NCBI GenBank assembly: GCA_003164785.1 | Contig: PLUE01000065.1 | Location: 30,003-94,002, forward strand | Direction of reading: 5' to 3' | From: Gammaproteobacteria bacterium | Lineage (GTDB): Bacteria; Pseudomonadota; Gammaproteobacteria; Steroidobacterales; Steroidobacteraceae | Length of the DNA stretch: 64,000 nt | Shown here: positions 5,937-17,944 of the stretch, in pieces | Layout: every line of letters starts with the position of its first letter | Position numbering within the stretch: position 1 is the first letter of the stretch | Notes under the pieces: model-generated | Database searches by the model: none | The model's input: the letters and a program-made list of their open reading frames with translations, nothing else | Told to the model about the DNA's origin: nothing | Position numbers and translations under genes: made by a program

Positions 5937-6168
5937 TCCACGTGGGGGGAGCCACGGGCGTCACGCGTACGGGGGGGGGTATGCGATCGTGCAGGGTTCG
6001 CCGTACCCTCAGGCACCGGCGCCCGCCGCCGCGGGCGCGACGATGACGGGCTCAGGCACCCAAAGCGCTGGCGATACTCGCCAGTATTTCTTAACAGCAA
6101 CTTAACGGGCCGCGGTCGCATCATCGTTCCCAGGGGGGGTGGCATAAAAATGCATTGGAGAACACACG

Positions 6169-8685
6169 ATGCTTCCCGCATGGATGGATTCGATATCGTT
6201 CCGCACCGAGCAGAACGGTGCTTGCAAAATACGCCTGATCGATGATCGGCCGCTGTATTCACCGCCGCAGTCGCTGAAGATTGCCAAACGATCAAGTGCT
6301 GCGGCCGCCGCTGCAGTCGCGATCGGAATTCTCGGCGGCTCCTTTGCTTTCAAGGTGATGGCCGAGACGGCGACCATGTCCGAGGACGCGGGCGCCGCTC
6401 TTGATGAGATCGTGGTAACGGCGCAAAAACGCGTATCGACGGTTCAGACGACGCCGATCAGCATCACTGCGGTCAGCGGCGCCGATTTGCTGGCTCGCGG
6501 CGTCTCCTCCTTGGCCTCTTTGGCGCAGGGCACGCCCGGCGTTTCGCTCAAGAGCGAAGGGCCCAGTCAGACGGAGATCGAGATGCGGGGCATGACCTCC
6601 AGCGGCGGCAACTCCGCCACGGTCGGCTTCTATCTCGACGACATTCCCTTGGCGGGGCCTGCAAGTGCCCAGAATGGGCACGTGGTGATCGACCCCGATC
6701 TCTACGACCTCAGTCGCGTCGAGATCCTGCGCGGGCCTCAAGGTACGCTGTTCGGGTCGGGTTCGATGGGCGGCACAGTCCGATTGATTAGCAACCAGCC
6801 GAACTTGACGGAGTTTCAAGCGACCACACAGAGTGTCTTGTCGGGCACCGACGGCGGCGGGTTCAATCACAAAGACAGTTTGATGGTCAACCTTCCTCTT
6901 ATCAACGACACCTTGGCATTGCGGGTGGCGGGAACGGAAGACTATACGAGCGGTTGGATCGACCGCATCGTAGTCAACTCCCTTCCAATAGCCGTTGGAA
7001 GTCCGGTCGGCACCGTGCGCGGCGACGTCCAGAACGCCCCCATCGAGAAGCAATATCCGGGCTCGAATGCCTATCAAACCTACGCAGTGCGCGCGAGTCT
7101 GCTGTGGAAGCCGATGGAAAACCTGTCGGTCACGCCGGCATTCTTCCACACGACCAGTACTCAAAACGGCATCAGTGCCTATGACAGCAATCCCGGTACC
7201 CTGGCGCACTACCAACCTTTTGACATCGCCGAACCGCTGACCGATTCGCTGACGGCCTACAGCCTCAATGTGAATTACAGTTTCCCGTGGTTCGATCTGA
7301 CATCGAGTACTGCGCGATGGACCCGAAACTCCTCTCAGGTAGAGGAGGCCAGCGAGGCCTTCAATAATCCGGCCGAAGGAATTACCTATGCCTCTAACAA
7401 CGGTCTTCCGAACCCTGGTTATTATGGCCCGACCGGGTCGGGTCCGCAGCACGGTATCGAAGACGATCCTTCCCATCAGTTCAGCGAGGAGCTGCGATTG
7501 GCTTCGACGGGGAACGGAAGAGCCAGCTGGGTTGGCGGGCTCTATTACAGCAATTACTACTCTTTGTGGGGCTTCCGGGGTACGACGCCCAATTACTCCT
7601 CGTATATGGATCTCGGCACGCTCGCGCCGGCAACCACACCCAACTGGTACGATGCCTACTCGCCTACCACGCTCTCGCAGTTTGCGGCCTTCGGCGACGC
7701 CACCTATGCTCTGACCGATGCGCTCAAGATCGATGTCGGCGCCCGCGTGAATCACTACGATTATCGCTTCTCTTCGTGCCTCAGCGGCTGGGGATCGGCT
7801 CACGGAGCCGCTACGCCCTCGTGTTCCGGTCTCATCGCGCTATCGAACAACAGTTTCAACCCCAAATTCAATCTAGCCTACACGTTCAGCCCGGACTTGA
7901 TGGCGTATGCAACCGTGTCGACCGGCTTCCGTCCCGGCGGGGGCAACGCGGTCTATCCGACCACGGGTGCCGCCTGGGGAGCGGCTTTCCAGCAGCAGGG
8001 TTATACGAGCGGCAAGTGGCCCTCGACGTACGCACCGGACTCTGTCTTGAGCTACGAGCTTGGCGAAAAGTCGCGATTCTTTGATCGCCGCCTGACGGTG
8101 AACACGAGTATCTATTATGAGGACTGGCGCCACCCCCAGCTCGAGGCGTATCCGAACGACTGGGCGCTCAACATCAACGGTGACTATGTCTCCATCTATG
8201 GCGCCGACATTGACATGCTCGCTGACCTGGGGGCGGGATTTCAGTTCGAAGTCGCGGCCGGCTACCTCTATGAATATCTGGATGGGGGCCCGCACTGGGT
8301 GATTACTCCGGTCCACAAGATGCCGGAGGTCTCGCCGGAGAGTGGGACCGTCGCTCTCAACTATTCCAAGCTGCTCGGTGCCTCCTACACGTTCACGGCT
8401 CGATTGGAAAGTTCCTACACCGGCCCGCGCTACTCGATCTACTTCTCGGACCCTTACGAGTTCACTGGTACGTACAGACAAATGCCCGGCTATGACCTGG
8501 TCAACGTCCGCGCGGGAATCAAGTTTCATGATAAGTGGAGCGCGACGGCATTCGTCAACAATCTCACCAACAAGCACGCCCAGCTGGAGAGCATGTTCAC
8601 GGAAAATGAGCCCCAACCGAGCTTCACCCGCATTGAAACCAACCAGCCGCTCACCGGGGGTGTCGACCTGACCTACCGTTTCTAG
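6169..8685 (+). CDS. TonB-dependent receptor
   Basis: Plug region DEIVVTAQKR...TPISITAV, barrel repeats, and terminal ...GGVDLTYRF. The start is uncertain: the signal-peptide-like segment AKRSSAAAAAAVAIGILGGSFAFKVMA begins 37 codons after the first ATG. Confidence 0.85.
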   Translation: MLPAWMDSISFRTEQNGACKIRLIDDRPLYSPPQSLKIAKRSSAAAAAAVAIGILGGSFAFKVMAETATMSEDAGAALDEIVVTAQKRVSTVQTTPISITAVSGADLLARGVSSLASLAQGTPGVSLKSEGPSQTEIEMRGMTSSGGNSATVGFYLDDIPLAGPASAQNGHVVIDPDLYDLSRVEILRGPQGTLFGSGSMGGTVRLISNQPNLTEFQATTQSVLSGTDGGGFNHKDSLMVNLPLINDTLALRVAGTEDYTSGWIDRIVVNSLPIAVGSPVGTVRGDVQNAPIEKQYPGSNAYQTYAVRASLLWKPMENLSVTPAFFHTTSTQNGISAYDSNPGTLAHYQPFDIAEPLTDSLTAYSLNVNYSFPWFDLTSSTARWTRNSSQVEEASEAFNNPAEGITYASNNGLPNPGYYGPTGSGPQHGIEDDPSHQFSEELRLASTGNGRASWVGGLYYSNYYSLWGFRGTTPNYSSYMDLGTLAPATTPNWYDAYSPTTLSQFAAFGDATYALTDALKIDVGARVNHYDYRFSSCLSGWGSAHGAATPSCSGLIALSNNSFNPKFNLAYTFSPDLMAYATVSTGFRPGGGNAVYPTTGAAWGAAFQQQGYTSGKWPSTYAPDSVLSYELGEKSRFFDRRLTVNTSIYYEDWRHPQLEAYPNDWALNINGDYVSIYGADIDMLADLGAGFQFEVAAGYLYEYLDGGPHWVITPVHKMPEVSPESGTVALNYSKLLGASYTFTARLESSYTGPRYSIYFSDPYEFTGTYRQMPGYDLVNVRAGIKFHDKWSATAFVNNLTNKHAQLESMFTENEPQPSFTRIETNQPLTGGVDLTYRF

Positions 8686-8699
8686 CAAGAAGGTTGCCT

Positions 8700-8728
8700 G
8701 CCGCGCGCATGAGATCCATGCGCGCGGC
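8700..8728 (+). terminator. GC-rich hairpin downstream of the TonB-dependent receptor
   Basis: Perfect 12-bp stem GCCGCGCGCATG / CATGCGCGCGGC with 5-nt loop AGATC, 15 nt after the stop. No clear T-tract. Confidence 0.5.
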
Positions 8729-8816
8729 GCGACGGCATGCGCGTTAGCCAACCAGAAGTGAAACGCAGGTGCGCGGCTGGTATAGTCGTTGTAACGTCGT
8801 TGTTGAGGTTTACACG

Positions 8817-9071
8817 ATGACACAGCCAGCGCCCCTGTCCACCGTCATTGTCGGGGGCCGGACGGTCAGAGAGAACCTCGAGCATGCCGTGATGAGCGGC
8901 GCCGTGCTGCAGCATCCAGACGGCAGATATGAACTGGCTGAATCCGCATCCGACAAGCCGCCGGTGCTGGATCTGTTCATGCGGCCCTTGTCGCGGGCGA
9001 CCTCCCTGCCGTGTGCGTTTCTAAACCGGTTCCTCCGTTGCCCCATCCCACCAAGAGTGGATCGGAAATAG
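8817..9071 (+). CDS. Hypothetical protein (84 aa)
   Basis: ATG preceded by GAGG. The first ~65 codons have G/C-rich third positions. The 3' end overlaps the next ORF by 61 nt in another frame. Confidence 0.4.
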   Translation: MTQPAPLSTVIVGGRTVRENLEHAVMSGAVLQHPDGRYELAESASDKPPVLDLFMRPLSRATSLPCAFLNRFLRCPIPPRVDRK

Positions 9072-9475
9072 ACAATCCCGAGAATCCGCATCCCTATGGC
9101 ACCTACCTTTATTTGAACGGTATCAATCAGGCACGCGAGGTCTATCGCACCCTGCGGAGACAGATCGACGGGCACGAACACCTGGGCCCCAACGTCCAAA
9201 TGCTGATCAAGCGCGGCTGCACCAATTACGAGCGCAAATGCGGCCCCTCGGACCGGTATAGCTTCGATCCGGCCCTGGGAGCGGTCGAAGCGGAATTGTC
9301 CGAGCGGTTCATCAAGCCCGTCCAGCCCATCCCTCCCAAGGTTCGAAACCCACTCAGGCTGATCGAGATCATCAAGATCGCGTATCGCAGCGGTGACGAG
9401 ACCTATAAAGATTTCACCCACGGCAGGAACCTGTTGCCGCCGACCATCGCCTATCCGCCCGAGCCCGGAAGCTAG
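9011..9475 (+). CDS. Hypothetical protein (154 aa from GTG), Pro-rich N-terminus, ends ...TIAYPPEPGS
   Basis: G/C-biased third codon positions in a locally AT-richer stretch. The stop lies 7 nt before the PqqD-like start. No recognisable motif. Confidence 0.45.
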   Translation: MCVSKPVPPLPHPTKSGSEIDNPENPHPYGTYLYLNGINQAREVYRTLRRQIDGHEHLGPNVQMLIKRGCTNYERKCGPSDRYSFDPALGAVEAELSERFIKPVQPIPPKVRNPLRLIEIIKIAYRSGDETYKDFTHGRNLLPPTIAYPPEPGS

Positions 9476-9482
9476 ACCCAAG

Positions 9483-9791
9483 ATGAACAGTACTCTGCGC
9501 TTCGAACTCGATACCCCGGTCAGATGGCATCCAGAGCACATCGCGGGCGAGGTCAACGGCCTGGTCGTGGTGCTGGGCATGTCCCAAGGCAAACATGTCG
9601 GCTTCGACGCGATGGCGACCCACGTCTGGCATCGCCTCGAATGGACGCAGACCGTGTCGGAACTATGCGACGGCCTCGCCAAGGACTTCGATGGCGATCT
9701 GGTCGTCATTCGGCAGGATGTCATCGACCTCTTGACTCAACTGCAGGAATTGAAGCTGGTCGAGATCGGGGTCGGCGATCTTTCGGCTTGA
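9483..9791 (+). CDS. PqqD-family protein (RiPP recognition element, lasso B1-like)
   Basis: 102 aa. The segment ...GLVVVLGMSQGKHVGFDAMATHVWHRLEWTQTVSELCDGLAKDFDGDLVVIRQDVIDLLTQLQELKLVEI matches the PqqD/RRE pattern: a beta strand, then ...LN.tA..iW..l....tv.el, then ...Dv..fl..L...gLv. Confidence 0.8.
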   Translation: MNSTLRFELDTPVRWHPEHIAGEVNGLVVVLGMSQGKHVGFDAMATHVWHRLEWTQTVSELCDGLAKDFDGDLVVIRQDVIDLLTQLQELKLVEIGVGDLSA

Positions 9792-9855
9792 CGCTGGCGC
9801 AGCCTCGCCCGACCGCATCCTCTATGGCTATCGCCTGCGCACGGATCTGCCGCTG

Positions 9856-10707
9856 GTGTCGTTGCCGCCGGCGGTTGGGGACGGCGCGCCCGAGATCGAA
9901 CTGCGCTGCAGCGACATTCCTCAGAGATTGGACGCGCCGGCTTGGAGCAGTCCGTTCATCGATATCGGAACGGACGGCAACGTGTTGATGCGCCTGGGTC
10001 AGCACACGCGCTTCCTCATCCGTGGAGGACGCGAGGTCATCGTGGACGAAGGCGCGGCGGCGCATATGCCGGATGTCGAAACCTTCCTGGTGGGGGCCGT
10101 GTCGGGCGTGCTGCTGCACCAGCGCAACGATTTGGCCCTGCATGCGAGTTGCGTTGCCATCGACGACCGAGCCGTTGCCTTCGTCGGCCCGTCGGGCCGG
10201 GGCAAATCGACCCTGGCCGCGTTTCTTGCCGCGCGTGGATTCGCGCTCTTGACCGACGACGTTTGCCGAATAGTGTTCCAACGTCAGCATGTGTGCGTCG
10301 TCCCGGGCTCCTGTCGCCTGAGATTGTGGCCGGACGCGGCGCGCGCGCTGGATCACGCCCCGGAAACGCTGCCGACGGGGCGGTCCGGCCATCCCAAGCG
10401 CGTTCTGGTCCTTCCTGTTGGAAGCGTCGATCCTGTTCCTTTGGCTGCGGTCATCCGATTGGCAATCGATACCCGCCTGAAGACCCCCAGTCTGAGCAGG
10501 TTATCCGGACCTGCCTCGGTCATGCCGGTGGAAGACCTGCTCTACCGGGCGCGCCTGGGTCGCCGCCTCGGGCGTCGGATCCCGCTGTTCCAGGGCCTCA
10601 CCCGTCTGGCGGGCCTGGTCCCCGTTTTCAGCCTGACGCGCACCGGGGATATGGCGGATTTGCCGGGCCTGGTCGGTCTGGTGGCATCGGTCATGACGGG
10701 CGGCTGA
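9856..10707 (+). CDS. HPr-kinase/phosphorylase-like P-loop kinase (RiPP-associated HprK-related type)
   Basis: P-loop FVGPSGRGKSTLAAFLAARGFALLTDD. Coordinates start at the first canonical start (GTG 9856). The family-typical N-terminal motif LYGYRLRTDLPL is encoded in-frame upstream at 9820-9855. Confidence 0.8.
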   Translation: MSLPPAVGDGAPEIELRCSDIPQRLDAPAWSSPFIDIGTDGNVLMRLGQHTRFLIRGGREVIVDEGAAAHMPDVETFLVGAVSGVLLHQRNDLALHASCVAIDDRAVAFVGPSGRGKSTLAAFLAARGFALLTDDVCRIVFQRQHVCVVPGSCRLRLWPDAARALDHAPETLPTGRSGHPKRVLVLPVGSVDPVPLAAVIRLAIDTRLKTPSLSRLSGPASVMPVEDLLYRARLGRRLGRRIPLFQGLTRLAGLVPVFSLTRTGDMADLPGLVGLVASVMTGG

Positions 10708-11552
10708 TGGCCGGGGTGCAGTTCGGCTGGCTGGTCTCTTATCCGAAATCCGGCAACACTTGGATGCGGATGATGCTCTCCAGCCTGATGTCGGGCGGTG
10801 GATCGGTCGATATCAACGCGATCGATAGCAGGATCGGCATCGCGACCTTCGCCGAGATGGACGAATTCCTGGGCGTCGAATCCTGCGAATTGACTCGCGA
10901 GGAGATTGCGATCGCACGCCCGGCCCTGCATGCCGCGATCGCCGCCGATCACGATGAGCCCCTGATCCTGCGCAAGGTCCATGACCGCTATTGGAGAACC
11001 CCCTCGGGCGGCGCCGCTTTCGTCCCAGACATCAGCCGGGGGGCCGTGTATCTCGTGCGCGATCCACGCGATATCGCCGTCTCTTATTCCCATCATCGCG
11101 GTAGCGAGATCGACCGCATGATCGGTCAAATGGCCGACGACGACGTCGCCCTGGCGAGCGCGACCTTGCGCGGGAAGGAACAGTTGCCTCAACCTCTTGG
11201 GTCGTGGAATGGACATGTTCTGTCGTGGTTGGATCAGACCGAGATCCCCACCCTGGCCATGCGCTATGAGGACATGCTCTCTGCCCCAACGGCCTGTCTG
11301 GCCAAGGTCGCGATGCATCTGGGCATCGACACCGCCGAGGCGCATCTACACGCGGCGGTCGTCGCCACCGGGTTCGACATCCTGAGCATCCAGGAAAATG
11401 CCTCCGGCTTTCGTGAACGGCAGACCTCGGCGATGGCAGCGTTTTTCCGGCAGGGCCGCTCCGGCGGCTGGCGCGAGCAGCTGTCGGCGGCCCAAGCGGA
11501 CCGCATCGTCGATCGTCACGGCGCAGTCATGGCTCGGTTCGGTTATCTGTGA
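10707..11552 (+). CDS. PAPS-dependent sulfotransferase family protein
   Basis: 5'-PSB loop YPKSGNTW and 3'-PB motif VRDPRDIAVS. The ATG overlaps the kinase TGA (TGATG). Confidence 0.85.
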   Translation: MAGVQFGWLVSYPKSGNTWMRMMLSSLMSGGGSVDINAIDSRIGIATFAEMDEFLGVESCELTREEIAIARPALHAAIAADHDEPLILRKVHDRYWRTPSGGAAFVPDISRGAVYLVRDPRDIAVSYSHHRGSEIDRMIGQMADDDVALASATLRGKEQLPQPLGSWNGHVLSWLDQTEIPTLAMRYEDMLSAPTACLAKVAMHLGIDTAEAHLHAAVVATGFDILSIQENASGFRERQTSAMAAFFRQGRSGGWREQLSAAQADRIVDRHGAVMARFGYL

Positions 11553-11564
11553 CCTGCGAACCGT

Positions 11565-12238
11565 TCAGTTGGTGCCCTCCGCCCAGGCGATGAAGGCGCC
11601 GACGCTCAATGCACCACTCAGAAGCGCACTGAACCCGGACCTCTGGCGTTCCGCCGCCACCGTATCGGCCGGCCAGTTGCCGATCATAGGGTCGAGACGA
11701 TCGAGGTCGAGCAGGCGCTGCGCGGTTGGCGACCGCCGCAGCCGCTCCATCAGGGCCGGCAGCGACGACCGAGCTTCAGACAGATGGGCGAACCATTCCG
11801 GATGCTGCCGCCCTCGCAACTTGTTCTCCGTAACGGCGCGGGGCACCCCCGCCGCGCGCAGCAGGCGGCGCGCAAGATAACGGTTCGTGCCGTTCTCGAG
11901 GAACTGTTCCTCCGGGATGGCGAGACAGAATTCGACGAGTCGCAGATCCGCGAGCGGCATCAAACTGTCCAGCCCGTGAATGCCCCGCAGGGCGTTGACG
12001 AGGTCCGGCCGCCGGCTCCGCCCGCGTTTCAGCGCCTGAATCCGCAACAGGCGGCTATCCGGCGACAAGACGAATCTGGTGTCATTGCCTCGTTGCCGCA
12101 TGCGTTCGCGAAGGCCGAGTTGAGCGAGCGACTCATCCGTCGCGACGCCAGACCCGGCTCGTCCGGCGGTGCAAGAGGACGGACCGGGAGAGCCTCCCCG
12201 CCGGACCCCAGCCATGCGGCCCCGACGAATGAACTCAT
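11565..12238 (-). pseudogene. Asparagine-synthetase-like lasso cyclase (C protein), internally deleted and frameshifted
   Basis: The N-terminus MSSFVGAAWLGSGGEAL... starts at ATG 12238 and resembles AsnB/lasso-cyclase starts. The C-terminal ~190 aa lie in another frame (...GLDSLMPLADLRLVEFCLAIPEEQFLENGTNRYLARRLLRAAGVPRAV...) and match an Asn synthetase C-terminus. Only 674 nt are available, against the ~1.5-1.9 kb expected. Confidence 0.55.
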
Positions 12239-12252
12239 GGCGAGTGCGGCCG

Positions 12253-12417
12253 CTAACTCGTGGAGCCACTTGCATGGTCACTATGTACGCCGATACTGCT
12301 GAGCGTTCCGCGCTCGACATCCAGAACCGACACTTTGGGCCGCTGCCACTGGTTCCGAACGACCGTAGGCCGCTCGTCCGCTCCGGCTTCCTCGTCTGCC
12401 TCTTCGTTCATTTCCAT
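12253..12417 (-). CDS. Candidate lasso-peptide precursor (54 aa), absent from the ORF track
   Basis: Sequence MEMNEEADEEAGADERPTVVRNQWQRPKVSVLDVERGTL|SSIGVHSDHASGSTS. Leader W-x-x-P-x-V motif, Thr at -2, Ser1...Asp8, C-terminal Ser. GGTGGGGA lies upstream of the ATG pair. The stop is 14 nt before the cyclase remnant. Confidence 0.55.
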   Translation of the reverse strand: MEMNEEADEEAGADERPTVVRNQWQRPKVSVLDVERGTLSSIGVHSDHASGSTS

Positions 12418-12591
12418 CGTTCCCCACCCGGTGATGCTGCCATTCTGCGCGCGACGTGCGGCCCTTTCCCTTGGAACTCACCATCGAGAATAGGATCGAA
12501 CTTCGGCGAATGCACGCTGCGATGCACGAGCGTAAACGCGGTGCGTTGACGAGCGGACGGTCCGGGCGGGGCGCAGGAAGCGGAGTGGATA

Positions 12592-13218
12592 TCAACGAGC
12601 CGTTGGCTCGAAGCGACTAACCTCGATTCCCGCGCCGACGGGCAACAGCACGCTCGTGATGCCGGGCTTTGCGCGGACGGCGCTGACGTAGCGCTTCACC
12701 GGCTCTCCGCCCGGGTACAGAATGTTGTCCGCAACGATGACTGCACCTGGATTGAGCAATGGATAGAATGCCTCGAGGCAGGGTACGTAGAGATCTTTCC
12801 AGAGATCGAGCAGTACGAAGTCGATGCCGCGCGGGAGGCTTCCAATCAACTGCACTGCGTCGCCGACCTTGAAGTCGACATGGTCGGCGAGGCCGGCCTT
12901 CGTGGCCATGTCGCGCGCATAGGCGGACTTGTAGTCTTTGAGTTCTAACGTCGTCAGGCGGCCGCCACTTGCCCGCGCGGCTTCCGCCAGCCAAATTCCC
13001 GAATACCCATAGGACGTCCCAATTTCCAGGATATTGGGCGTCTCGAGGCTGCGGGCGATGATGTTGATCAATCGTCCCGTCTCCGGTCCAACCGCAAGGA
13101 GCTGGCGGTCCCGCCAGTCTTCCGATCTATCGGCTGGCGCCGCGTTGTTTCGCAGTTCCCTTTCTGCGTGCATGCGCTCGTGGTACATGTCGAGAACCGC
13201 ATCGATTCGATCATCCAT
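12592..13218 (-). CDS. Class I SAM-dependent O-methyltransferase (family 3, caffeoyl-CoA-OMT-like)
   Basis: SAM motif I ILEIGTSYGYSGIWLA, then ...LTTLELKD..., DFVLLDLWKDLY, and GAVIVADNILYPG. Confidence 0.85.
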   Translation of the reverse strand: MDDRIDAVLDMYHERMHAERELRNNAAPADRSEDWRDRQLLAVGPETGRLINIIARSLETPNILEIGTSYGYSGIWLAEAARASGGRLTTLELKDYKSAYARDMATKAGLADHVDFKVGDAVQLIGSLPRGIDFVLLDLWKDLYVPCLEAFYPLLNPGAVIVADNILYPGGEPVKRYVSAVRAKPGITSVLLPVGAGIEVSRFEPTAR

Positions 13219-13375
13219 TGGATACTCCTGGGCGAATCACCGGGTTGCTTCGCGGGCCACCATTCGTTCGGCTCGCGATGGAGAGGCATCTTGCATCATT
13301 CAAGTAATCTCGCATAACTTGCGTCGCAAGCAAATGACTACGGGGGATTCGGAGTTCCGCCGACATCGGCGCGCA

Positions 13376-13616
13376 TTCGCACCGCCGCTGGAAGGACTGA
13401 TAATGGGCACCCGCAGCGGGGACATCGATTTGGCAATTGCGTCAACATAGGGAGGATGCCGACGTCGATCTTGCGGTGAATATGTTCGGTTATCGCGTCA
13501 AGAAGTACATTGGTGCTCATTTGGCCGCGCTTGGCGGCGCGGATGCCATCGTCTTCGGCGGCGGGATTGGCGAGAACGAGGGACTGATGATGGCCCATCA
13601 TGCCGCGCGCGCTTGA
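13376..13616 (+). pseudogene. ackA: Acetate kinase remnant (two out-of-frame fragments)
   Basis: [19 protein letters not shown] (frame 2, stop at 13448-13450) and [41 protein letters not shown] (frame 0). Both match conserved acetate kinase segments. About 80 of ~400 aa remain. Confidence 0.6.
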
Positions 13617-14538
13617 TCGCCCGGTAACGCGCGCGCAGGGCAAGGCTCGCGGCGGACCGCGACGACAATCATCGAGCGGCGCAGACGTCGCGTCCCCGCT
13701 TTCCGTCCCGTTCAAGGTCGCCGCGCGACCCGCCCATTCGCTGCACGATGCTGCCCTGAGCCTCGTCGACGGCGCGATCGATACCTTGAGGCGGCGTCAC
13801 GACGACCAGGCCATCCATGCGGCCCGCAAGGCCTGCAAACGCATCAGAGCCGCATTGCGCCTGTTACGTGGGTGCTTGGGGCCCGGTGTCTACCGGCGCG
13901 AGAATAGGAGGGTTCGGGACGCAAGCAAGCCCCTCACCGCGGTCAGGGATGCCTTTATTCTGCGAAAGACACTGGGCGCGCTCCCTCATCGTCCGGTCGC
14001 TTTCCAGCGCGGCCTGGATTCGGACTATCGAGCGGAACGACAGGTACTGGAGCGCCGAGGAGCGCGTCGCGCTCTCAATCTGCTCACGGAGACTCGCGCC
14101 AGGCTTCTCGACCTGCCGTCGGTCGGCTCGGAGGCGGCGTCAGCCATTGCCGGCGCCAGAAGCGTCTACAAGGCCGGACGCAAAGCCCTCAGAAACGCCC
14201 GGCACAGGGATGATGAAGCGCTGCACGAGTGGCGCAAGCAGACCCAATACTTGGTGAATCAACTCGAGCTTCTGAAGTCCGTATTCAATGCCAAGTTCGG
14301 CAAACTCCACCAGAGTGCGGAGAAGATAGCCGACGCATTGGGGGATGACCATGACTTGGGCGTCCTCATGAGCAAGCTGCAGGCCTACGAGGCACCCGAT
14401 GAATCCTTCATGAAGGTCATCAACAAGCGACGCGGCAAGCTGCAGGCGCGCGCGTTTCGCATGGGAAGGAAATTATACCGGCACCCGGAAAAGCACTTCG
14501 AAGCGATCGTGGCGGCGCGTTTGTCGAGACCCAAGTAG
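13600..14538 (+). CDS. CHAD domain-containing protein
   Basis: [20 protein letters not shown]...[17 protein letters not shown]...[11 protein letters not shown] pattern, typical of CHAD helical repeats. Confidence 0.75.
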
Positions 14539-14606
14539 CGGTATCAGGCGTGCGCCTTGCTTGCCGAGCGCCGTGCGGGTTGCCGGCGCCAGGGTGAGCG
14601 GCTACC

Positions 14607-15647
<1,041 letters not shown>

Positions 15648-15751: not shown

Positions 15752-17944
15752 ATGAGTCGTCTAGTATCGTCCCCGGTGGTCCAGTGGTTCGTAGTCGGGG
15801 TGTGGACCCTCGTGGCACTGATCGCGCTTCCCTTCGCGGCGGCGGTGAATGGCGAACTCGACGCGACGACGCGACTCGATGACAGCGAGTCCGGACGCGT
15901 CGAGACGGTTCTGCGCGAGCAGTTCAAATCGCCGTTCGCGCAGATCGCCCTGTTGCGGGTCGCCGGCGTGCCGCCAGCCACCACGGATCCCGGCAGGGCG
16001 GTACTCGAGCGTGTCGTCCAAGCGTTGCGGCGCAGCCCACCGGTTCAAGGCACCCTGTCCTACATGGACCGGGAGGATCGGTTGTTCGTCGGTCAGGACG
16101 GCAGCGCGCTCGTCATCGTCGGGCTGCGCGCCCCCCACGGTCCCAACGACGACTCGATGGCGTTGCTTCACGGTACCACGGAGGGATTGCAGCGGGATCT
16201 GGCGGGCCAATATCCGCAGCTCGCGTTCGGTTGGACGGGCGAGGCGGCCGTGAACGCCGACATGCGGCGGATCAGCTCGGAGCAGACCCGCACGGCCGAA
16301 TTGCGCGTGTTACCGCTCACCCTGCTGTTGCTGCTGATCGCATTTCGAAGCCTGCCGTCGGCGGTCCTGCCCGTGGTGTGCGGCGGATTGACGATCCTGG
16401 TGTCGCTCGGTGTCGTTGCCCTTCTCAATGCGTTCTGGCCGGCGTCGGTCATCGTGGTGAGCGTCATCAGCATGGTCGGGCTCGGCCTCAGCATCGACTA
16501 TGCGCTGCTCATCGTCAGCCGCTATCGAGACGCGCGGGACGAGGGCTCGTCGCATGCACAAGCCGTGCTGGTGGCGGTGCAGCGGGGCGCCCGAACGGTG
16601 GTTGTCTCGGGTACCGCGGTCGCGATCGGCTTCGCGGCGATGCTGCTCGTGCGGATCAGCGAAGTCAGGTCGATTGGAGCCGGGGGCTTGGTGGTGACGG
16701 GCGTGGCGGTCGCGGTGGCGTGTACGCTCCTGCCCATCCTGCTGTCGCGGATAGGACCCTGGCTCGATCGCGGCCGATTCCCGCGGGTCCGATCATCGGG
16801 TGGCCGGCCTTGGCTGAGGTCTTGGGCCACCTGGGTGACCCGGCACCCCTGGACCGTGCTGATCGTGGCGGGGGCGCCGCTGTTGCTCCTCGCCGCCCAG
16901 GCGGCGCACCTGCGCGGCGATCTGCCGCGCGGGCGCTGGTTGCCGGAAATTGCCGAGTCGGTCCGGGTGTTGCACGAAATCGAGGGCGTCAGTCGGGGGA
17001 ATTTCGGACAGATCATTCCCGTCATCCTCGAATTGCCGCCGGGCACCACGATATACGATGAGCGCGGCTGGCAGGCGGCGTCCAAGCTTGCCCGATCCTT
17101 CGCGCGCGATCCCCGAGTGCAGCACGTCTGGGCCGCCACCACGCTGAGCACCATGCCGCTCAGCGGCCCGGAGATCCTGGGCCGACTCCCGGAATCGGTG
17201 CGCCGCAGTTTCGTGAGCGGCGACGGCCGCGCGGCGCTCGTGCAGATATTGCCCAAGACCGGTCTGGCGACGACGGATGCGGTCACGTTCGTGCGCGAGA
17301 TTCGCTCTCGGGGGGAGGCGTCGACCGGAATCGACGGGGCGCATCTGATCGTGGGCGGTGTCCCGGCATTCAATGTCGATTATCAGGATGCCATCGGCGG
17401 AGCCTTCAACATCGTGGCCCTCAGCGTCATTGCGGCCACGCTGATCGTGCTGGCGCTGGCGTTTCGCAGCCTGCTCATTCCGATCAAGGCGGTGGCGCTG
17501 AATTTGTTGTCGGTGGCCGCGTCATTCGGTGCCGTGGTCCTGGTGTTTCAGGACGGGTACGGATCACGCCTCTTTGGTCTGCAAGGCCCGATGGACGGCG
17601 GATTTCCCATCGTTCCGATCCTCGTCTTTTGCATCGTCTTCGGCCTCAGCATGGACTATGAGGTCTTCATCGTGGCCCGCGTTGCCGATGGGCGGCGTTC
17701 CGGACTTTCCGAGGAGCAGTCGTTGATCGAGGGTCTCGTCACGAGCGGCCGCGTCGTGAGTTTCGCCGCCGCCATCATGGTGGTGGTCTTCGGGAGCTTC
17801 GTCATGGGCGAATTCATCTTGATCAAGATTCTGGGCTTCGCCCTGAGCGTGGCCGTGATCTTGGATGCGACCGTCGTGCGGCTGGCAGTGGGACCCGCGC
17901 TCATTCGGCTCGCAGGGCGCTGGAATTGGTGGCCGGGGCCATAG
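15752..17944 (+). CDS. MMPL family (RND superfamily) transporter
   Basis: 730 aa. Two ~6-TM blocks, each followed by LSIDYALLIVSRYR / LSMDYEVFIVARV motifs, with a large periplasmic loop after TM1. Confidence 0.85.
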   Translation: MSRLVSSPVVQWFVVGVWTLVALIALPFAAAVNGELDATTRLDDSESGRVETVLREQFKSPFAQIALLRVAGVPPATTDPGRAVLERVVQALRRSPPVQGTLSYMDREDRLFVGQDGSALVIVGLRAPHGPNDDSMALLHGTTEGLQRDLAGQYPQLAFGWTGEAAVNADMRRISSEQTRTAELRVLPLTLLLLLIAFRSLPSAVLPVVCGGLTILVSLGVVALLNAFWPASVIVVSVISMVGLGLSIDYALLIVSRYRDARDEGSSHAQAVLVAVQRGARTVVVSGTAVAIGFAAMLLVRISEVRSIGAGGLVVTGVAVAVACTLLPILLSRIGPWLDRGRFPRVRSSGGRPWLRSWATWVTRHPWTVLIVAGAPLLLLAAQAAHLRGDLPRGRWLPEIAESVRVLHEIEGVSRGNFGQIIPVILELPPGTTIYDERGWQAASKLARSFARDPRVQHVWAATTLSTMPLSGPEILGRLPESVRRSFVSGDGRAALVQILPKTGLATTDAVTFVREIRSRGEASTGIDGAHLIVGGVPAFNVDYQDAIGGAFNIVALSVIAATLIVLALAFRSLLIPIKAVALNLLSVAASFGAVVLVFQDGYGSRLFGLQGPMDGGFPIVPILVFCIVFGLSMDYEVFIVARVADGRRSGLSEEQSLIEGLVTSGRVVSFAAAIMVVVFGSFVMGEFILIKILGFALSVAVILDATVVRLAVGPALIRLAGRWNWWPGP

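Follow-up and report, generated by a model that had tools for sequence, protein, structure and literature searches.

Coupled kinase and sulfotransferase genes in the tailoring half of a partly deleted paeninodin-type lasso peptide cassette

Genes at the locus

We investigated a 64-kb stretch of a gammaproteobacterial contig (PLUE01000065.1), hereafter termed the window, in which the interval 9483-11552 is filled by three genes on the same (+) strand, encoding a PqqD-family leader-binding protein, an HPr-kinase-like kinase, and a sulfotransferase (ST) (Table 1). These genes make up the tailoring half of a lasso peptide cassette of the paeninodin type, comprising the B1 protein, which is the recognition element (RRE) for peptides that are made on ribosomes and modified after translation (RiPPs), followed by the kinase and the ST. 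The whole cassette covers about 3.6 kb of the window (~8772-12417) and is homologous to intact lasso cassettes of ~5 kb in related genomes, whose loci we label L001, L002, and so on. In the intact cassettes of L001, L002, and L087, an accessory gene, which we named X266, precedes the genes for PqqD, kinase, and ST, while a 632-aa Asn-synthetase-like lasso cyclase and a precursor peptide of 54-56 aa are encoded convergently on the opposite strand. The explanation we favor for the locus as a whole, with a probability of roughly 0.6, is that in such relatives the ST is paired with the kinase to modify the peptide, and that the copy in the window is broken.

The PqqD-family protein matched the Pfam PqqD model with an E-value of 1.7e-10, scoring 41.5 bits where the cut-off is 23.4. 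It also matched the NCBIfam model lasso_PqqD_Bac (E=2.3e-8), albeit under the cut-off of that model. The gene is placed as in L001, L087, and L088.

Table 1. Cassette genes, motifs of the kinase and the sulfotransferase, and neighboring genes in the window.
Feature	Position (nt)	Strand	Remarks
X266 pseudogene	8817..9475	+	frames 8817-9071 and ~9036-9475; ~255 aa when intact
PqqD-family leader-binding protein (lasso B1/RRE)	9483..9791	+	intact, 102 aa
HPr-kinase-like peptide kinase	9790..10707	+	283 aa from first canonical start, GTG 9856
Kinase Walker A, GPSGRGKS	10186-10209	+	
PAPS-dependent cytosolic-type sulfotransferase	10707..11552	+	281 aa, intact
ST motif YPKSGNTW	10740-10763	+	
ST motif KVHDR	10974-10988	+	
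ST motif RDPRD	11058-11072	+	
ST motif FFRQGRSGGW	11442-11471	+	
Lasso cyclase remnant (Asn-synthetase-like)	11565..12238	-	N- and C-terminal parts joined out of frame
Lasso precursor peptide	12253..12417	-	54 aa; leader motif WQRPKVSVL
TonB-dependent receptor	6169-8685	+	flanking gene
Class-I O-methyltransferase	12592-13218	-	flanking gene; Methyltransf_3/24
Acetate kinase fragments	~13385-13616	+	two frames; Pfam positions 230-247 and 292-338 of 392
CHAD-domain protein	13600-14538	+	further flank
MMPL transporter	15752-17944	+	further flank

Sulfotransferase and kinase

The ST matched Pfam PF00685 (Sulfotransfer_1) with an E-value of 7e-21 (75.2 bits against a cut-off of 22). The motifs for binding 3'-phosphoadenosine 5'-phosphosulfate (PAPS), namely the 5'-phosphosulfate loop (PKxGxTW) and the 3'-phosphate motif (RxPxD..S), are present as YPKSGNTW and RDPRDIAVS, and the C-terminal RxGxxGxW motif as FFRQGRSGGW; all three align with the equivalent motifs of SULT1A3 and SULT1A1. 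K91 and H93 within KVHDR are invariant in 29 members of the ST family and would be equivalent to K106 and H108 of SULT1A1, as judged from motif and fold without residue-level superposition. A profile search against the Protein Data Bank (PDB) returned E-values of about 1e-21 to 1e-26, and the AlphaFold2 (AF2) model, with a predicted local distance difference test score (pLDDT) of 92, reached a Foldseek probability of 1.00 and template modeling (TM) scores of 0.60-0.67 to SULT1A1, Teg12, and StaL. Sequence profile and predicted fold thus both class the ST as a SULT-type enzyme.

Searches retrieved 2431 homologues of the ST, the closest named ones being from Azospirillaceae, Rhizomicrobium, Telmatospirillum, and Niveispirillum. 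The closest relative of the locus is L088, whose ST is 82% identical to that of the window. Both PAPS-binding motifs, the KxH motif, and RxGxxGxW are retained across the 29 homologues compared. The family is under purifying selection, with ratios of nonsynonymous to synonymous substitution rates (dN/dS) of 0.13-0.22 between relatives.

The kinase retains intact Walker A (GPSGRGKS), DD, and HQR..LHAS motifs as well as all invariant columns of the alignment of its family, which itself keeps the Walker A and DD motifs. Its closest solved relatives are HPrK/P proteins (E=3e-7), with the matches to Hpr_kinase_C and HprK_rel_A falling under the cut-offs. With the NCBIfam model TIGR04352 (HprK-related kinase A), which has a cut-off of 200 bits, the score was 40 bits and the match was confined to the P-loop region, placing the kinase by sequence outside the TIGR04352 equivalog. 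The ATG of the ST (10707-10709) overlaps the stop codon of the kinase (10705-10707) by 1 nt (TGATG).

Precursor peptide

The 54-aa precursor, MEMNEEADEEAGADERPTVVRNQWQRPKVSVLDVERGTLSSIGVHSDHASGSTS, is encoded 701 nt past the stop codon of the ST. Its predicted core, SSIGVHSDHASGSTS, has Ser1, Asp8, and a C-terminal Ser (ending in ...GSTS), and Thr occupies position -2 of the leader. The Thr at -2, the small first core residue, and the acidic residue within core positions 7-9, which can be Asp or Glu, are those of a lasso precursor. Moreover, the peptide is homologous to the precursors encoded beside intact cyclases in L001, L087, and L084. An earlier interpretation of this DNA (the sequence-only reading) had described an RRE, a kinase, and an ST with a start codon overlapping the kinase stop, intact PAPS-binding motifs and P-loop, and a Ser/Thr-rich core 700 nt away, and all of these features were recovered in our analysis.

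In the precursors of the relatives, the leader contains the motif W-x-x-P-x-(I/V/L), and the core has an acidic residue at position 7-9 and ends in Ser. Thr at -2 was seen in the precursors of the sub-clade to which the window belongs. A W-x-x-P leader motif of the same kind is present in the paeninodin precursor. A search of small open reading frames (ORFs) with a hidden Markov model (HMM) yielded 85 distinct precursor candidates in 55 loci, of which 72 end in Ser. Apart from the leader motif and the acidic ring acceptor, the precursors have only the C-terminal Ser (85% of the candidates) in common, which is the sole near-universal feature of the cores. Many cores from Gammaproteobacteria and Bacteroidales also bear a Tyr 3-6 residues from the end; none does in the sub-clade of the window.

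In several kinase-ST loci (L018, L031, L046, L053, L008, L012, and L037), the precursor genes form arrays of 3-7 paralogues whose cores are hypervariable. In these arrays, the conserved C-terminal Ser often follows Tyr or Cys-rich tails, such as ...NYRPHS and ...CICNPSS.

Gene context of the sulfotransferase family

A profile of the 29 ST homologues led to 80 species-level genome loci, drawn from at least 566 confirmed loci. With the addition of contigs from protein look-ups, these gave 86 non-redundant loci, which we scanned with trimmed-domain HMMs. In 84 of the 86 loci, an HPrK-like kinase is encoded no more than 5 kb from the ST, and the kinase gene lies directly upstream of the ST gene on the same strand in 76 (by a strict gap criterion) to 80 of them. 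Within 10 kb of the ST, PqqD was detected in 70, the cyclase in 67, and the B2 peptidase in 45 of the 86 loci. Where B1 belongs to the array, the common architectures are B1-kinase-ST (19 loci, including the window), kinase-ST-B1-B2 (20 loci), and kinase-ST-B1 (10 loci); a further 29 loci have kinase-ST without an adjacent B1 or B2 on the same strand. The cassette of Niveispirillum sp. KHB5.9 (L084) combines the cassette genes with a Transglut_core3 B2 peptidase and a 2-oxoglutarate-dependent (2OG) oxygenase.

Two loci from metagenome-assembled genomes, L072 (~8700-11100) and L082 (~8900-10900), encode the kinase and the ST as a fusion in one ORF, with the kinase at the N-terminus, the ST at the C-terminus, and a repetitive or low-complexity linker in between. 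Neither fusion locus has a cyclase, PqqD, or B2 within 10 kb, and a precursor-like ORF, ending at 8115, lies just upstream of the fusion in L082. The 86 loci span Alpha-, Beta-, and Gammaproteobacteria, Acidobacteria, Bacteroidales, Chloroflexi, Verrucomicrobia, Actinobacteria, and Negativicutes. The coupling of kinase and ST is not due to chance, because it is kept in 76-80 of the 86 loci across many phyla and has led to fusion in two.

Deletions and the lost kinase start codon

Deletion breakpoints in the window were determined by blastn against L001, L087, and L088, which gave the same positions each time. The cyclase gene lacks ~1,213 nt (~1.2 kb) between flanks at 12119 and 12108, and this junction falls on a GGCCGA(G/A) microhomology of 6-8 nt. 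What is left are ~40 N-terminal codons (12238 to ~12120) out of frame with ~180 C-terminal codons (12119-11565), matching only positions 205-343 of 354 in Pfam Asn_synthase and 489-583 of 668 in the NCBIfam lasso cyclase model. In L001, L087, and L088, the cyclase is 632 aa long or runs on past the breakpoint. Since the closest relative, L088, continues for 434 nt beyond the breakpoint, the deletion is specific to the lineage of the window. X266 lacks 116 nt between the aligned blocks 8806-9034 and 9036-12119 and is frameshifted.

The kinase gene of the window has also lost its start codon. Its frame is open from 9754, and homology to the kinases of the relatives begins at ~9811, yet no ATG, GTG, or TTG is present at the conserved N-terminus. 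The ATG that overlaps the PqqD stop codon in L001 and L088 is ACG in the window, accompanied by a 1-nt deletion, and the ATG used in L087 aligns with ATC (9817). Starting at GTG 9856 would drop the N-terminal YGxRxR..PL motif, which is conserved in all 12 kinases compared.

HMM searches found no second cyclase within the 64-kb window. There is also no B2 within the 64 kb according to an HMM that matches 45 of the 86 loci and was seeded with the B2 of L084 (Pfam PF13471, Transglut_core3, E=2e-27) and its relatives.

Seven contigs from seven samples (Logan runs and a metagenome of the Joint Genome Institute, JGI) share the degraded layout. Over the covered part of window positions 6001-14700 (up to 8.7 kb), six of them are 100% identical to the window and one is 99.98% identical. 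The truncated X266 product of 154 aa is indexed on at least 24 contigs. Because the layout is identical in seven samples and the truncated X266 recurs on so many contigs, the lesions are not assembly errors, and the strain or lineage of the window is widespread or has been sampled repeatedly.

With the cyclase deleted, X266 frameshifted, the kinase start codon lost, and no B2 in view, the locus by itself is unable to make a lasso peptide. The inference of the sequence-only reading that the kinase-ST pair looks functional and co-expressed is therefore not supported in the window. Most likely, the locus is a recently inactivated, pseudogenized cluster, in which the intact ST, PqqD, and precursor are recent relics rather than a working sulfation pathway. 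A residual function, either in making a linear modified peptide or by complementation in trans, may nevertheless persist.

The dN/dS values against the relatives range from 0.07 to 0.55, most of them being 0.1-0.3, for the intact genes and the remnants alike. As the remnants do not differ from the intact genes, the decay must be recent, and dN/dS is uninformative as a test for relaxed selection. Polymorphism that arose after the deletions offered nothing to measure, the seven contigs being 99.98-100% identical.

X266 and neighboring genes

X266 is encoded directly upstream of PqqD in the sub-clade of kinase-ST lasso cassettes to which the window belongs. Its intact homologues are 254-266 aa long, with intact copies at 7944-8744 in L001, 1589-2353 in L087, and 6815-7588 in L084. 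We found no Pfam or NCBIfam match for X266, and every one of its 159 homologues is annotated as hypothetical. Invariant Cys residues occur in VPxGCxxCYKVKV and IKRGCTNYExxCGPSD. The AF2 model of X266 (pLDDT 93) gave no significant fold match in the PDB (best E=0.016, query TM score (TMq) 0.27). X266 as a stand-in for the B2 protease is unsupported, as it has no peptidase-like fold match and is encoded beside a true B2 in L084.

The genes flanking the cassette code for a TonB-dependent receptor and an O-methyltransferase, followed by the CHAD-domain protein and the MMPL transporter (Table 1). We considered the first two as cluster members and rejected both: homology to the cassettes ends at ~8772 on the side of the receptor and at 12417 on the side of the O-methyltransferase, and the neighbors differ in L001, L087, and L002. 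All four genes are probably unrelated to the cassette because none of them is syntenic with it in the relatives. In L001 and L002, the cassette is followed, past the precursor, by three tandem genes for phage tail collar domain proteins (Collar, PF07484) and a DUF6916 gene. Between the O-methyltransferase and CHAD genes of the window lie fragments of an acetate kinase gene in two frames, a second pseudogene remnant and hence further decay next door.

Proposed function

What would the ST do in the relatives with intact cassettes? A peptide-directed ST is the best reading because its gene occurs in lasso clusters, most precursors of which have a C-terminal Ser, and gene context makes it rather likely that the ST modifies the peptide. 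Very probably, it does so together with the kinase. HPr-kinase homologues of paeninodin-type clusters phosphorylate the Ser at the C-terminus of the precursor, and proteobacterial lasso kinases polyphosphorylate this residue, their substrate being the linear precursor rather than the folded lasso (PMC8498205). In the literature, this activity is established for relatives rather than for the window copy.

We propose that, in the intact relatives, PqqD would bind the leader and present the precursor. The kinase with ATP and the ST with PAPS would then jointly modify the C-terminal tail while the precursor is still linear and the tail exposed, and only afterwards would the leader be cleaved and the ring closed; the tail would gain both phosphate and sulfate. 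As acceptor of the sulfate we tentatively favor a hydroxyl group within the last few residues, from Ser or Thr, or from Tyr where present. We consider such a C-terminal hydroxyl more probable than the phosphate installed by the kinase, which is the main alternative. The sequence-only reading had suggested peptide O-sulfation alongside phosphorylation; the peptide as the target stands as the best reading, whereas O-sulfation of Ser/Thr specifically is unsupported.

Several points weigh against this proposal. The acceptor, the order of action, and the peptide specificity of the ST are all read from gene context. The core in the window has no Tyr, the classic site of peptide sulfation. Full-text literature searches found no experimental report of lasso-peptide sulfation, and a 2023 list of demonstrated lasso modifications does not include it. 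To that extent, sulfation is undescribed for lasso peptides, as the sequence-only reading had supposed, but the association of an ST gene with such clusters was already known. Furthermore, the closest intact relatives (L001, L087, and L002) also have no recognizable B2 within 10 kb, so that the cassette as we define it may be incomplete. Lastly, the decay is too recent to reveal relaxed selection, and the surviving genes of the window may still work with a cyclase and a B2 encoded elsewhere in the genome.

The combination of an HPr kinase and a sulfotransferase in lasso clusters was pointed out by Letzel et al. (2014), and a 2021 review (PMC8498205) records, citing Zhu et al. (2016), a "putative sulfotransferase-encoding gene" in some kinase-type lasso clusters. 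Both left the function of the ST open, in the latter case according to what the review cites of it. The association of an ST gene with kinase-type lasso clusters is therefore not new. New here are the near-obligate order of kinase and then ST, the fusions, the precursor statistics, X266, and the pseudogenized state of this locus.

Alternative explanations

We speculated on an alternative in which the ST of the intact relatives sulfates the phosphate placed by the kinase on the C-terminal Ser, creating a phosphosulfate. This is possible but unlikely. It would account for the tie of the ST to the kinase, seen in the strict kinase-then-ST order and the fusions, and for the C-terminal Ser as the sole near-universal core feature, and the nucleotidyltransferase of pseudomycoidin sets a precedent for decorating a phosphate. 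However, the case is purely inferential, and among the invariant columns of the ST no family-specific group of basic residues stands out that might form a pocket for a phosphorylated acceptor. Moreover, we know of no PF00685 enzyme that uses a phosphate oxygen as the acceptor. A related and improbable idea is that the pair gives the C-terminal Ser a mixed phospho/sulfo decoration, in its boldest form a phosphosulfate anhydride, and, as a corollary, that cyclase-less loci, and perhaps the degraded lineage of the window, produce linear sulfo/phospho-peptides. Such an anhydride is, to our knowledge, not known elsewhere as a peptide modification. If this were true, the bulky anionic group could form the lower steric plug of the lasso in Gly/Ser-rich cores like that of the window.

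For the locus in the window, it is doubtful that kinase, ST, and RRE are a working, co-expressed unit that turns the nearby precursor into a lasso peptide with phosphate and O-linked sulfate. That ST, PqqD, and precursor are intact, that the kinase keeps all its catalytic motifs, and that the stop and start codons overlap would fit such a unit, but the out-of-frame cyclase remnants, the frameshifted X266, the loss of the ancestral kinase start, and the absence of a B2 from the 64 kb speak against it, and the truncated X266 on at least 24 contigs attests that the lesions are reproducible. It is equally doubtful that the surviving precursor, PqqD, kinase, and ST make a linear phospho-/sulfo-peptide, as the cyclase-less loci L072, L082, and L008 might. 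Four of the six cassette genes are still open, and the fusion loci, with neither cyclase nor PqqD nor B2 within 10 kb and with the precursor-like ORF upstream in L082, lend this scenario some plausibility. The lost kinase start codon is at odds with it, no leader peptidase or exporter is evident, and there is no divergence since the deletions by which selection could be tested.

Could the ST instead act on a non-peptide substrate, such as a small molecule, a glycan, or a lipid, with the adjacent kinase being incidental or regulatory? The ST is approximately equidistant (16-21% identity, TM 0.60-0.67) from the mammalian small-molecule SULTs and from Teg12, Teg14, and StaL, which act on peptide antibiotics, and JGI annotates homologues as "aryl sulfotransferase". 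The same equidistance places the ST outside any characterized non-peptide clade, membership of which the sequence-only reading had named as grounds for abandoning a peptide substrate. Given the adjacency of the kinase in 76-80 of the 86 loci, which represent many phyla, the two fusions with a peptide kinase, and the co-occurrence of PqqD, cyclase, and precursors, we regard a non-peptide substrate as very unlikely. An intact cluster in which misassembly has produced the deletions is scarcely credible: metagenome assemblies can collapse at short repeats such as the 6-8-nt microhomology at the cyclase junction, but there are two lesions independent of each other, with point changes at the kinase start in addition, the seven contigs agree in layout and are 99.98-100% identical, and at least 24 contigs carry the truncated X266.

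We thus favor an ST that works with the kinase on the C-terminal tail of the precursor in the relatives, and a broken copy in the window. In hundreds of genomes, a dedicated clade of STs is joined to the lasso kinase, and if its members sulfate the peptide, they would carry out a new RiPP tailoring reaction. In that case, earlier assignments of +80 Da to phosphate may include mixtures of phosphate and sulfate, the masses of which (79.9663 for HPO3, 79.9568 for SO3) are only 9.5 mDa apart. The fixed order of kinase and ST, the fusions, and the C-terminal Ser make for a sharply testable hypothesis, with intact clusters available in cultured strains, namely Niveispirillum sp. KHB5.9 (L084), Novispirillum itersonii DSM 11590 (L011), Ancylobacter dichloromethanicus VKM B-2484 (L077), Sphingomonas caeni LB-2 (L058), Sphingomonas sp. 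MMS24-J45 (L063), Acidovorax sacchari HC-19 (L071), and Sporomusa silvacetica DSM 10669 (L034). The locus in the window is rather a cautionary case, as a decayed cluster is a poor template for reconstitution.

Comparison with known systems

The paeninodin-type clusters of Paenibacillus dendritiformis (paeninodin) and Sphingobium yanoikuyae, as summarized in the review PMC8498205, resemble the window in having a split B1 (PqqD), an HPr-kinase homologue, and a core ending in Ser. They differ in the position of the ST gene, which is coupled to the kinase gene here, whereas the review puts it at the start of Firmicutes clusters. The window is further set apart by the additional conserved X266, the lack of a B2 in view, and the deleted cyclase.

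The TIGR04352 system and ScmC (PF27840) are similar to the window in that HPr-kinase-like P-loop proteins are encoded beside PqqD-family proteins. The kinases of the relatives carry weak or faint ScmC tags in precomputed annotations, a tag that presumably denotes Haft's SynChlorMet cassette protein; our searches found no relevant literature on ScmC (PF27840).

StaL, Teg12, and Teg14 are likewise bacterial PF00685 enzymes of ~270-290 aa that sulfate a peptide natural product, and they rank among the best sequence and fold matches of the ST. However, they share only ~20% identity with it, their substrates are non-ribosomal glycopeptide aglycones, which they sulfate on phenolic hydroxyls, and neither a kinase nor an RRE is partnered with them. 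In Xanthomonas, RaxST is a PAPS-dependent sulfotransferase acting on a ribosomally made peptide, RaxX, as proposed for the ST here. RaxST belongs to a different, TPST-like family and sulfates tyrosine, which the core in the window does not contain, and its system involves no lasso fold, kinase, or PqqD.

In pseudomycoidin from Bacillus pseudomycoides, a nucleotidyltransferase adds a hexose to the phosphate that the kinase has placed on the C-terminal Ser (PMC8498205). The partner of the kinase is in that case a nucleotidyltransferase with other chemistry, rather than a PAPS-dependent sulfotransferase. Nevertheless, a second tailoring enzyme working with a lasso kinase at the C-terminal Ser makes the pseudomycoidin cluster the best two-enzyme precedent for the kinase-ST pair.

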